This document shows positions 46 to 456 of a stretch of DNA of 64,000 nucleotides, in pieces (the stretch's first letter is position 1; the number at the start of each line of letters is the position of its first letter). Made by a program: the position numbers and the translations under genes. The stretch comes from a phage: NCBI GenBank assembly GCA_014435945.1, contig GCA_014435945.1_4088.1, one strand, 5' to 3'. Under the pieces are notes generated by a model. It was not told the origin of the DNA, ran no database searches, and was given only the letters and a program-made list of their open reading frames with translations.

Positions 46-456
46 ATGATTGAAATGGAAGGAACTCTGGTGTATGATCCAGATCGTGGCACTATGAAAA
101 AGAAGAAGGACTTCTGGTTAGTACTGCAACTTCCATTACAGTTGGTTCGATACTACCAGTACTTCATCAGAACTGACTTACATATTGATATCAAAGACCC
201 ACAATGGGGAGCACATGTCAGTATCGTTCGTGGTGAAGTGCCACCAAATCCAGAGTACTGGAAAAAGTACGATGGTATGAAAGTTAAGATTAAGTTCGAA
301 CCTTTCATCGAAGAAGTAAAAGACAATAAGAAACCTGGGTCATTCTTTATCATAGAGTTTGAAGATGATTTCATTGCACAAATTCGTGATGAACTTGGTT
401 TAGCATCTAAATATTTCAAATATCACATCACCATTGGTAGAACATACTACGATTAA
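46..456 (+). CDS. 2H phosphoesterase superfamily protein (LigT/Acb1-like)
   Basis: 136-aa ORF with AGGT RBS; two H-x-S/T-x motifs (HVSI, HITI) about 70 aa apart; N-terminal FWLVLQLP resembles LigT FFAIDLP. Confidence 0.5.
   Translation: MIEMEGTLVYDPDRGTMKKKKDFWLVLQLPLQLVRYYQYFIRTDLHIDIKDPQWGAHVSIVRGEVPPNPEYWKKYDGMKVKIKFEPFIEEVKDNKKPGSFFIIEFEDDFIAQIRDELGLASKYFKYHITIGRTYYD

Follow-up and report, generated by a model that had tools for sequence, protein, structure and literature searches.

Very large bacteriophages carry many genes that shield translation from host attack, and enzymes of the 2H phosphoesterase superfamily have on repeated occasions been recruited to repair RNA as well as to destroy immune messengers. 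The closest described families are LigT/ThpR, with structures from E. coli (4QAK/5LDM), P. horikoshii (1VGJ) and D. radiodurans (5H7F); Acb1, represented by gp57B of phage T4 and the protein of Erwinia phage FBB1 (PDB 7T27); and 2H-SAK, whose name reportedly goes back to the ‘Swiss Army Knife’ proteins of RNA repair described by Burroughs and Aravind (2016). For jumbo phages of group 2.2, surveys have predicted that 2H proteins clear 2′,3′-cyclic ends for RNA repair (PMC7824862; PMC9503650). Here, we describe a gene at positions 46..456 of a 64,000-nucleotide stretch of phage DNA (contig GCA_014435945.1_4088.1, hereafter the window), which a sequence-only reading had called a LigT/Acb1-type 2H phosphoesterase. 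Membership of the 2H superfamily is supported by the motifs, by the Pfam family PF22547 and by the predicted fold; the LigT/Acb1 type falls away, as neither profile matches, and the family-level match points instead to the third family, 2H-SAK. We put at roughly one in two the probability that the product is an active, metal-independent enzyme of a phage-restricted, stand-alone 2H-SAK branch, with the 2′,3′-cyclic phosphate ends of RNA or tRNA as its likely substrate. The gene and the elements on which this reading leans are as follows (aa, amino acids; nt, nucleotides).

46..456, plus strand: 2H gene from the program-made list of open reading frames (ORFs); ATG start, 136 aa, stand-alone; Pfam 2H-SAK, PHROG 12204
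37..39, plus strand: possible weak Shine-Dalgarno sequence AGG, 6 nt before the ATG, read from the sequence; candidate only
61..87, plus strand: N-terminal strand (2-10 in the model) and loop with conserved G6, Y10, D11, P12 and R14, of which Y10 and R14 are invariant and the others nearly so
112..180, plus strand: first-lobe strand (aa 24-28, nearly invariant W24) and helix (aa 31-45) of the model; W24 and Y36 conserved
214..225, plus strand: catalytic motif 1, H57-V-S59-I (aa 57-60; CAT-GTC-AGT-ATC), in strand 57-62, followed by conserved R62-G63-E64
424..435, plus strand: catalytic motif 2, H127-I-T129-I (aa 127-130; CAT-ATC-ACC-ATT), in the last strand 126-132, followed by G131-R132

The 2H assignment draws on the invariance of the motifs, a family-wide match to PF22547 and a fold search. 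PF22547 (‘2H-SAK’) is the sole Pfam match of the window protein even at E≤10, with 23.8 bits (E 5.9e-5; aa 91-136 aligned) against a cut-off of 27 bits, so that only the C-terminal third aligns and the score stays below the threshold. Across the family, 75 of the 76 aligned relatives match PF22547 (E≤0.01; best E 2.8e-10) and no other family, and the ortholog in Serratia phage BF, at 33.7 bits, passes the cut-off. PF22547.3 is also precomputed for the 88%-identical cluster P0001 and for most relatives, and one ortholog carries the UniRef name ‘Swiss Army Knife 2H phosphoesterase domain-containing protein’. PHROG 12204, annotated as function unknown, covers the full length of the protein, while NCBIfam gave no match at E≤1 and a search of the PDB by sequence returned no meaningful match, either with the single sequence or with a 76-sequence profile. 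The PF22547 domain spans about 124 positions and ends directly after the second HxT motif, as the window protein does; the latter, however, stands alone with its 136 aa instead of forming part of a multidomain repair protein. The gene is, thus, an unannotated member of a family already present in Pfam and UniProt and not a new system; the GenBank label of its orthologs is ‘hypothetical protein’ throughout. The domain call itself is correct but unsurprising, given that Pfam and UniProt label orthologs and that surveys predict RNA repair by jumbo-phage 2H proteins; what deserves mild interest is which substrate this large, exclusively phage-borne 2H family has, together with its repeated association with YqeY and its unusual, minimal topology.

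Both motifs noticed by the sequence-only reading, HVSI and HITI, are borne out by conservation. Among 256 relatives of at least 125 aa, some of them representatives of 50%-identity clusters retrieved by exhaustive HMMER searching, H57 and [ST]59 are each present in 256/256, and H127 and [TS]129 each in 253/256, the three exceptions being alignment gaps; the paired histidines are, therefore, retained in homologs. In the alignment of 76 sequences, where identity goes down to 34%, H57, H127, T129 and G131 are invariant and S59 is nearly so. Further near-universal residues are G6, Y10, D11, P12, W24, Y36, R62, G63, W72, R114 and R132, and these conserved aromatic and basic residues would suit a pocket for a nucleotide or for RNA. 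The two histidines lie 70 residues apart, which is nearer to the 69 of T4 Acb1 (H44/H113) than to the approximately 82 of E. coli LigT; the sequence-only reading had described the spacing as LigT-like. The motif pair also exceeds chance, a line of evidence less strong than the conservation. When the whole genome of phage 121Q was scanned for stop-to-stop ORFs of at least 100 aa with two H-hydrophobic-[ST]-hydrophobic motifs 55-95 residues apart, only 2 of 519 ORFs qualified, one of them the ortholog of 46..456. The other, gp282 (L005:43365-43688; 107 aa, HVSV and HCTV 59 residues apart), has no Pfam match, is too short for a 2H fold and was set aside as probably a chance occurrence.

An AlphaFold2 model built with the 76-sequence alignment reached a mean predicted local distance difference test (pLDDT) score of 92.1 and a predicted template-modelling score (pTM) of 0.84, and supports a 2H fold in a divergent, minimal form. 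In order, the model has strand 2-10, strand 24-28, helix 31-45 and strand 57-62, which bears the HxS motif, and then strands 79-84, 89-92 and 99-105, helix 108-116 and strand 126-132, which bears the HxT motif. The model, thus, supports the internal duplication of the 2H fold: a strand-helix-strand(HxS/T) unit occurs twice, and each motif sits on a central strand of its lobe. Within the first unit, the segment FWLVLQLPLQLVRYY (aa 23-37) is predicted to form a strand and then a helix (E24-28, H31-45), so that the proposed likeness of the N-terminal segment to the first strand of LigT is upheld as the strand-helix part of a 2H lobe. An extra N-terminal strand, which bears family-specific invariant residues, precedes this unit, and the chain ends 6 residues past the HITI motif, compared with the 35-50 residues that follow the second HxT in Acb1 and LigT; the N-terminal strand of the model may replace the canonical C-terminal one. 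Foldseek searches of the PDB gave weak matches (E ~0.1, template-modelling score ~0.4), mostly to LigT and Usb1, and in BFVD only two proteins matched at E≤0.001, one of them unnamed and 95% identical, the other uncharacterised and from a marine phage, with named 2H proteins matching only weakly.

At the family level, the protein differs from both LigT and Acb1. The LigT-type Pfam families (LigT_PEase PF02834 and 2_5_RNA_ligase2 PF13563) gave no match to it even at E≤10; in comparison with the LigT/ThpR structures, it is about 40 residues shorter and has its second HxT at the extreme C-terminus, and its family is phage-restricted. The Acb1 family, Pfam PF23474, is matched neither by the window protein (E≤10) nor by the 76 relatives (E≤0.01), and BLASTP against T4 Acb1 gave no significant hit (13% identity). 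An hhalign comparison of the family alignment with the Acb1 alignment yielded a probability of 22% over 33 columns, in which the second half-repeat was paired with the first of Acb1, a cross-pairing that reads as a trace of internal duplication and not of orthology. Acb1 continues for about 35 residues after its second HxT (H113-T115), including a C-terminal strand and a lid at residues 145-152 (PMC9117128); these have no counterpart in the window protein, which instead has the extra N-terminal strand. The two families also differ in charge: 2H-SAK proteins are basic, with a median isoelectric point (pI) of 9.1 and a net charge of +5, as expected for RNA binding, and Acb1 proteins are acidic (median pI 5.8).

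A genuine Acb1-family protein served as a positive control. It was found by reading the sirtuin region of Serratia phage BF (genus Eneladusvirus), where gp110 (148 aa) scores 56.4 bits against PF23474 and 94% in hhalign; gp183 of the same phage, 46 kb away, is the ortholog of 46..456. The row around gp110 is:

L018:7228-9618 (BF 57,227-59,617): Acb1-family gene, small unannotated ORF, Sir2, Nudix-cREC fusion

Both families also occur within 5 kb of each other in two IMG/VR loci (L073 and L074), and BFVD lists a separate ‘Acb1’ for Yersinia phage fHe-Yen9-04. Since true Acb1 and 2H-SAK proteins co-exist in BF, L073 and L074, their roles are presumably not redundant. Neither an Acb1 homolog nor a second 2H gene was detected by phmmer and hmmsearch in the window or in the whole genome of 121Q (genus Asteriusvirus), and it may be a new observation that Eneladusvirus has both Acb1 and the 2H-SAK protein and Asteriusvirus the 2H-SAK protein only. 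As a side observation, 121Q keeps Sir2 and Nudix genes (L007:20175-21475) with no Acb1-family gene anywhere in its genome.

The family of 46..456 is large and essentially phage-restricted. Clustering at 50% identity gives 887 representatives (E≤1e-3); of the 150 listed, nearly all are stand-alone proteins of 130-170 aa. Relatives were found in 76 phage records, nearly all from jumbo phages (Rak2-like phages, Bacillus phage G, Agrobacterium phage Atu_ph07, Ralstonia phage RsoM2USA and Sinorhizobium phage Phosso), and in 74 IMG/VR loci, many of them on contigs of 100-600 kb. Among 185,579 species genomes, there were five loci only, all on contigs of metagenome-assembled genomes, two of which are 330 and 455 kb long.

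The source phage is itself an E. coli jumbo phage. Over its first 6 kb, the window shares 94-97% identity with such phages as Ecwhy_1, TH47, WPEC3 and Turkey3, several of which encode a 100%-identical protein, and 84% with 121Q, whose ortholog, gp531, is 89% identical to the window protein. Between the gene and its 121Q ortholog, the nonsynonymous rate (dN) is 0.060 and the synonymous rate (dS) 0.737, and this ratio of 0.08 establishes 46..456 as a coding gene under strong purifying selection.

How such a protein would work can be proposed from its superfamily. The two strand-helix-strand units would place H57/S59 and H127/T129 in one cleft. By analogy with the rest of the superfamily, the conserved tetrad on two central strands argues for an active enzyme in which the histidines would serve as general acid and general base in the cleavage of a cyclic phosphodiester. 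The likely substrate would be RNA ending in a 2′,3′-cyclic phosphate, above all tRNA cut by metal-independent ribonucleases of the host. Opening of the ring would leave a monoester, to be removed by a phosphatase (121Q has a T4-type Pnkp), and the freed end could then be rebuilt by the neighbouring CCA enzyme or sealed by a phage RNA ligase. Catalysis, substrate and any cooperation with the CCA enzyme, the ligase or YqeY are inferred. In E. coli, the HD domain of Cca supplies 2′,3′-cyclic phosphodiesterase and phosphatase activities (reportedly the work of Yakunin et al., 2004), and it would be a functional analogue, clearing a blocked tRNA 3′ end for CCA rebuilding, albeit with an unrelated fold and a metal-dependent chemistry. 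The phage CCA enzyme consists of a PolyA_pol head and RNA-binding domains and has no HD domain, nor any histidine after residue 171 of 371; given the role of the E. coli HD domain, a separate ring-opening enzyme followed by Pnkp and CCA rebuilding would form a coherent pathway.

An RNA or tRNA substrate is favoured because of the surroundings of the gene, which include an RNA ligase, a DUF2828 protein, the CCA enzyme and YqeY, because of a direct fusion to YqeY and neighbours of the SAK-type HAD class, and because the family is basic. Downstream of the gene, the window holds the following.

597-1550: LysM lysozyme, downstream of the 2H gene
1600-2232, plus strand: HNH endonuclease ORF, 210 aa; PHROG 953, E 4e-68, C-terminal half only (positions 198-400 of 420)
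2245..2577, plus strand: HPF/RaiA-type ribosome-associated factor; PF02482, E 2e-8, with synteny in Rak2-like loci
2801-3214 and 3201-3623, plus strand: tandem paralogs of PHROG 20693, function unknown (E 4e-60 and 4e-53), overlapping by 14 nt, between the HPF and CCA genes
3759..4874, plus strand: CCA-adding tRNA nucleotidyltransferase; PF01743 and PF12627 only, syntenic in 16/17 Rak2-like loci
4981..5394, plus strand: Nudix hydrolase; PF00293, E 1e-11, and synteny
5384-5632: glutaredoxin, downstream of the Nudix gene
6214..6690, plus strand: Macro-domain-like protein (Appr-1′′-p processing type); PF01661, E 5e-4, 20.4 bits against a cut-off of 22, and synteny

The Macro-like protein has an ortholog in 121Q, gp544, that is annotated as ‘macro domain protein’. 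A further label from this region, ‘peptidyl-tRNA hydrolase’ on the Turkey3 ortholog of window positions 7031-7408 (plus strand), found no Pfam match and falls in PHROG 14786 of unknown function; it is unconfirmed and was left unused.

The block of 2H, lysozyme, CCA, Nudix, glutaredoxin and Macro genes is kept in 16 of the 17 Rak2-like IMG/VR loci, the contig of the 17th ending after the lysozyme gene, and in these loci the HPF, CCA, Nudix, glutaredoxin, YqeY and Macro genes lie 2-7 kb downstream of the 2H gene. HPF was detected in 11/17 loci, and YqeY follows glutaredoxin in the same number (11/17). Upstream, an RNA ligase (PF09414 with a PHA02142 OB domain) is found at about 3 kb in 14/17 loci, and a DUF2828/DUF7788 protein, named ‘RNA-binding protein’ in RefSeq, at about 1.2 kb in 15/17; one or both are present in 15/17. 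Elsewhere in the genome, 121Q encodes a T4-type Rnl1 (gp438) and Pnkp (gp443) 50 kb away, Sir2 and Nudix proteins, and nine tRNA genes at 72-78 kb of its genome; within the 64-kb window, there are no tRNA or tmRNA genes.

For the context beyond this clade, 57 loci were sampled, drawn from 10 other clusters (50% identity). Pnkp-like genes were present in 7/57 of these outside loci, 3-6.5 kb away, and YqeY (PF09424) in 6/57, in four of them within 2.5 kb. Further YqeY neighbours, at 0.3-2 kb, were recorded in L010, L011, L012 and L094, and the divergent lineages in which YqeY lies within 2.5 kb of the 2H gene are L010, L011, L012, L038, L080 (Atu_ph07), L091, L092 and L094. In P0132, a protein of 335 aa, 2H-SAK and YqeY are directly fused. 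In L010, L014, L038 and L050, a HAD_SAK_2 phosphatase is encoded by a stand-alone gene at a distance of 4-7 kb. The YqeY genes found fused to 2H-SAK or 0.3-5 kb from it include:

L016:952-1959
L094:8759-9187
L010:5482-5919
L011:4494-4931
L012:9054-9479
L017:13729-14136

YqeY is the most reproducible partner across divergent lineages. Its domain, shared with the tail of GatB, is a tRNA-binding module, found also as the appended domain of Deinococcus GlnRS. The recurrent adjacency and the fusion may be a new observation, as YqeY goes unmentioned in the jumbo-phage survey PMC7824862.

Several observations weigh against a role in healing RNA or tRNA ends. The proximity of the gene to the CCA enzyme, to which the sequence-only reading drew attention, is real; outside the Rak2-like clade, however, a CCA enzyme lies within 10 kb in only 4/57 loci (~7%), the chance level for one gene per 350-kb genome, and this proximity was rejected as independent functional evidence. 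Most loci of the largest cluster are without a detectable RNA-repair neighbour, and synteny inside the Rak2-like clade may be due to shared ancestry and not to function. In the 121Q and Rak2 lineages, the ligase and DUF2828 genes have been lost from the 2H site, and searches with phmmer and hmmsearch detected no YqeY in the window or in the whole 121Q genome. Position is, moreover, a weak guide in phages, as T4 Acb1 itself adjoins tRNA genes. T4-type Pnkp can heal 2′,3′-cyclic ends on its own, so that there is no obvious need for a separate esterase. The window protein, near neutral at pI 6.3 and a charge of -1.2, belongs to an Asteriusvirus version that is an outlier of the basic family, and the best structural match in the fold search was Acb1. 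Finally, no biochemically characterised member of 2H-SAK was found, and a literature search returned no paper on ‘2H-SAK’.

The substrate would tell dedicated tRNA-end repair beside a CCA enzyme from another anti-signalling nuclease. The latter reading, in which the protein, like Acb1, ns2/VP3 or the poxvirus cyclic GMP-AMP (cGAMP) phosphodiesterase, would act on cyclic-oligonucleotide or 2′-5′ messengers of cyclic-oligonucleotide-based anti-phage signalling systems (CBASS), type III CRISPR or related defences, draws on the histidine spacing of 70 against the 69 of Acb1, on the best structural matches, on the small size of the protein and on the restriction of the family to large phages, with a niche left open in 121Q and the window by the lack of an Acb1-family gene. 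We nevertheless hold it to be unlikely. PF23474 matches neither the window protein nor its 76 relatives, the hhalign signal of 22% covers one half-repeat and the wrong half at that, and the chain, which ends 6 residues past the second HxT, lacks the Acb1 lid at 145-152. A true Acb1, placed beside Sir2 and Nudix-cREC, already co-exists with the 2H ortholog in BF, and both families are present in L073 and L074. An RNA substrate would agree better with the fusion and adjacency to YqeY and with the basic charge of the family, and healing of tRNA or RNA ends appears, on the gene context and the fusion, a better fit than an anti-CBASS role.

Another cyclic phosphodiester, the 1′′,2′′-cyclic phosphate of ADP-ribose (Appr>p), offers a different reading, in which the enzyme would feed the Macro protein (Appr-1′′-p phosphatase) and the Nudix protein (ADP-ribose pyrophosphatase), either for clean-up after NAD-dependent RNA repair or for the destruction of an ADP-ribose-derived host signal. 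This has a published model behind it, in which the removal of 2′-phosphates by a sirtuin or KptA makes Appr>p, which 2H and Macro domains then convert further (PMC9503650; PMC7824862); 2H, Nudix and Macro genes do lie within 6-7 kb in 16/17 Rak2-like loci and in the window, and 121Q encodes Sir2 and Nudix. Yet it seems quite improbable to us. The plant and yeast cyclic phosphodiesterases (CPDases) that act on Appr>p show no sequence-level match to the window protein, and KptA/Tpt1 is not among the 121Q annotations, which were consulted with no profile search for KptA/Tpt1 made. The Macro match stays below the Pfam cut-off, and outside the Rak2-like clade a Macro gene is near in one locus only and a Nudix gene in about 9/57. 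In BF, the sirtuin-linked 2H gene is the Acb1-family gene and not the ortholog of 46..456, and the YqeY link would be left unexplained. Other 2H chemistry on RNA, namely that of a 2′-5′ RNA ligase/phosphodiesterase or of a Usb1-like 3′ exoribonuclease leaving cyclic phosphates, is very unlikely: ‘RNA ligase’ is a legacy label for LigT-like proteins, borne by T4 Acb1 too, the Pfam searches show no specific sequence-level similarity to the Usb1 or LigT families, and nothing in the gene context points to ligase or exonuclease activity.

The healing of 2′,3′-cyclic RNA ends is the reading that we favour. A further proposal, which we regard as unlikely, is that of a distinct, strand-permuted minimal 2H enzyme with a substrate of its own, which would serve either in YqeY-guided unblocking of tRNA 3′ ends, as one of two proteins in a repair path with the HD-less CCA enzyme and against acceptor-clipping host toxins, or as a second, Acb1-independent class of nuclease against a host nucleotide signal. 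If true, either version would assign a function to a family that counts several hundred divergent lineages among very large phages.

Two minor observations concern the sequence downstream of the gene. A scan of window positions 1-700 for promoters and terminators found sites no more numerous than in shuffled sequence and no terminator. One sigma-70-like site lies at 480-507 (TTGATA, 16 nt, TATACT, with TG before the -10 element), in the 140-nt gap 457-596 before the lysozyme gene; the site count of the scan was at shuffled level. Further on, the HNH ORF accounts in part for the approximately 12% of the first 6 kb left uncovered by relatives, and the 121Q genes that flank its site are 17 nt apart; it looks like a homing-endonuclease insertion, possibly truncated.

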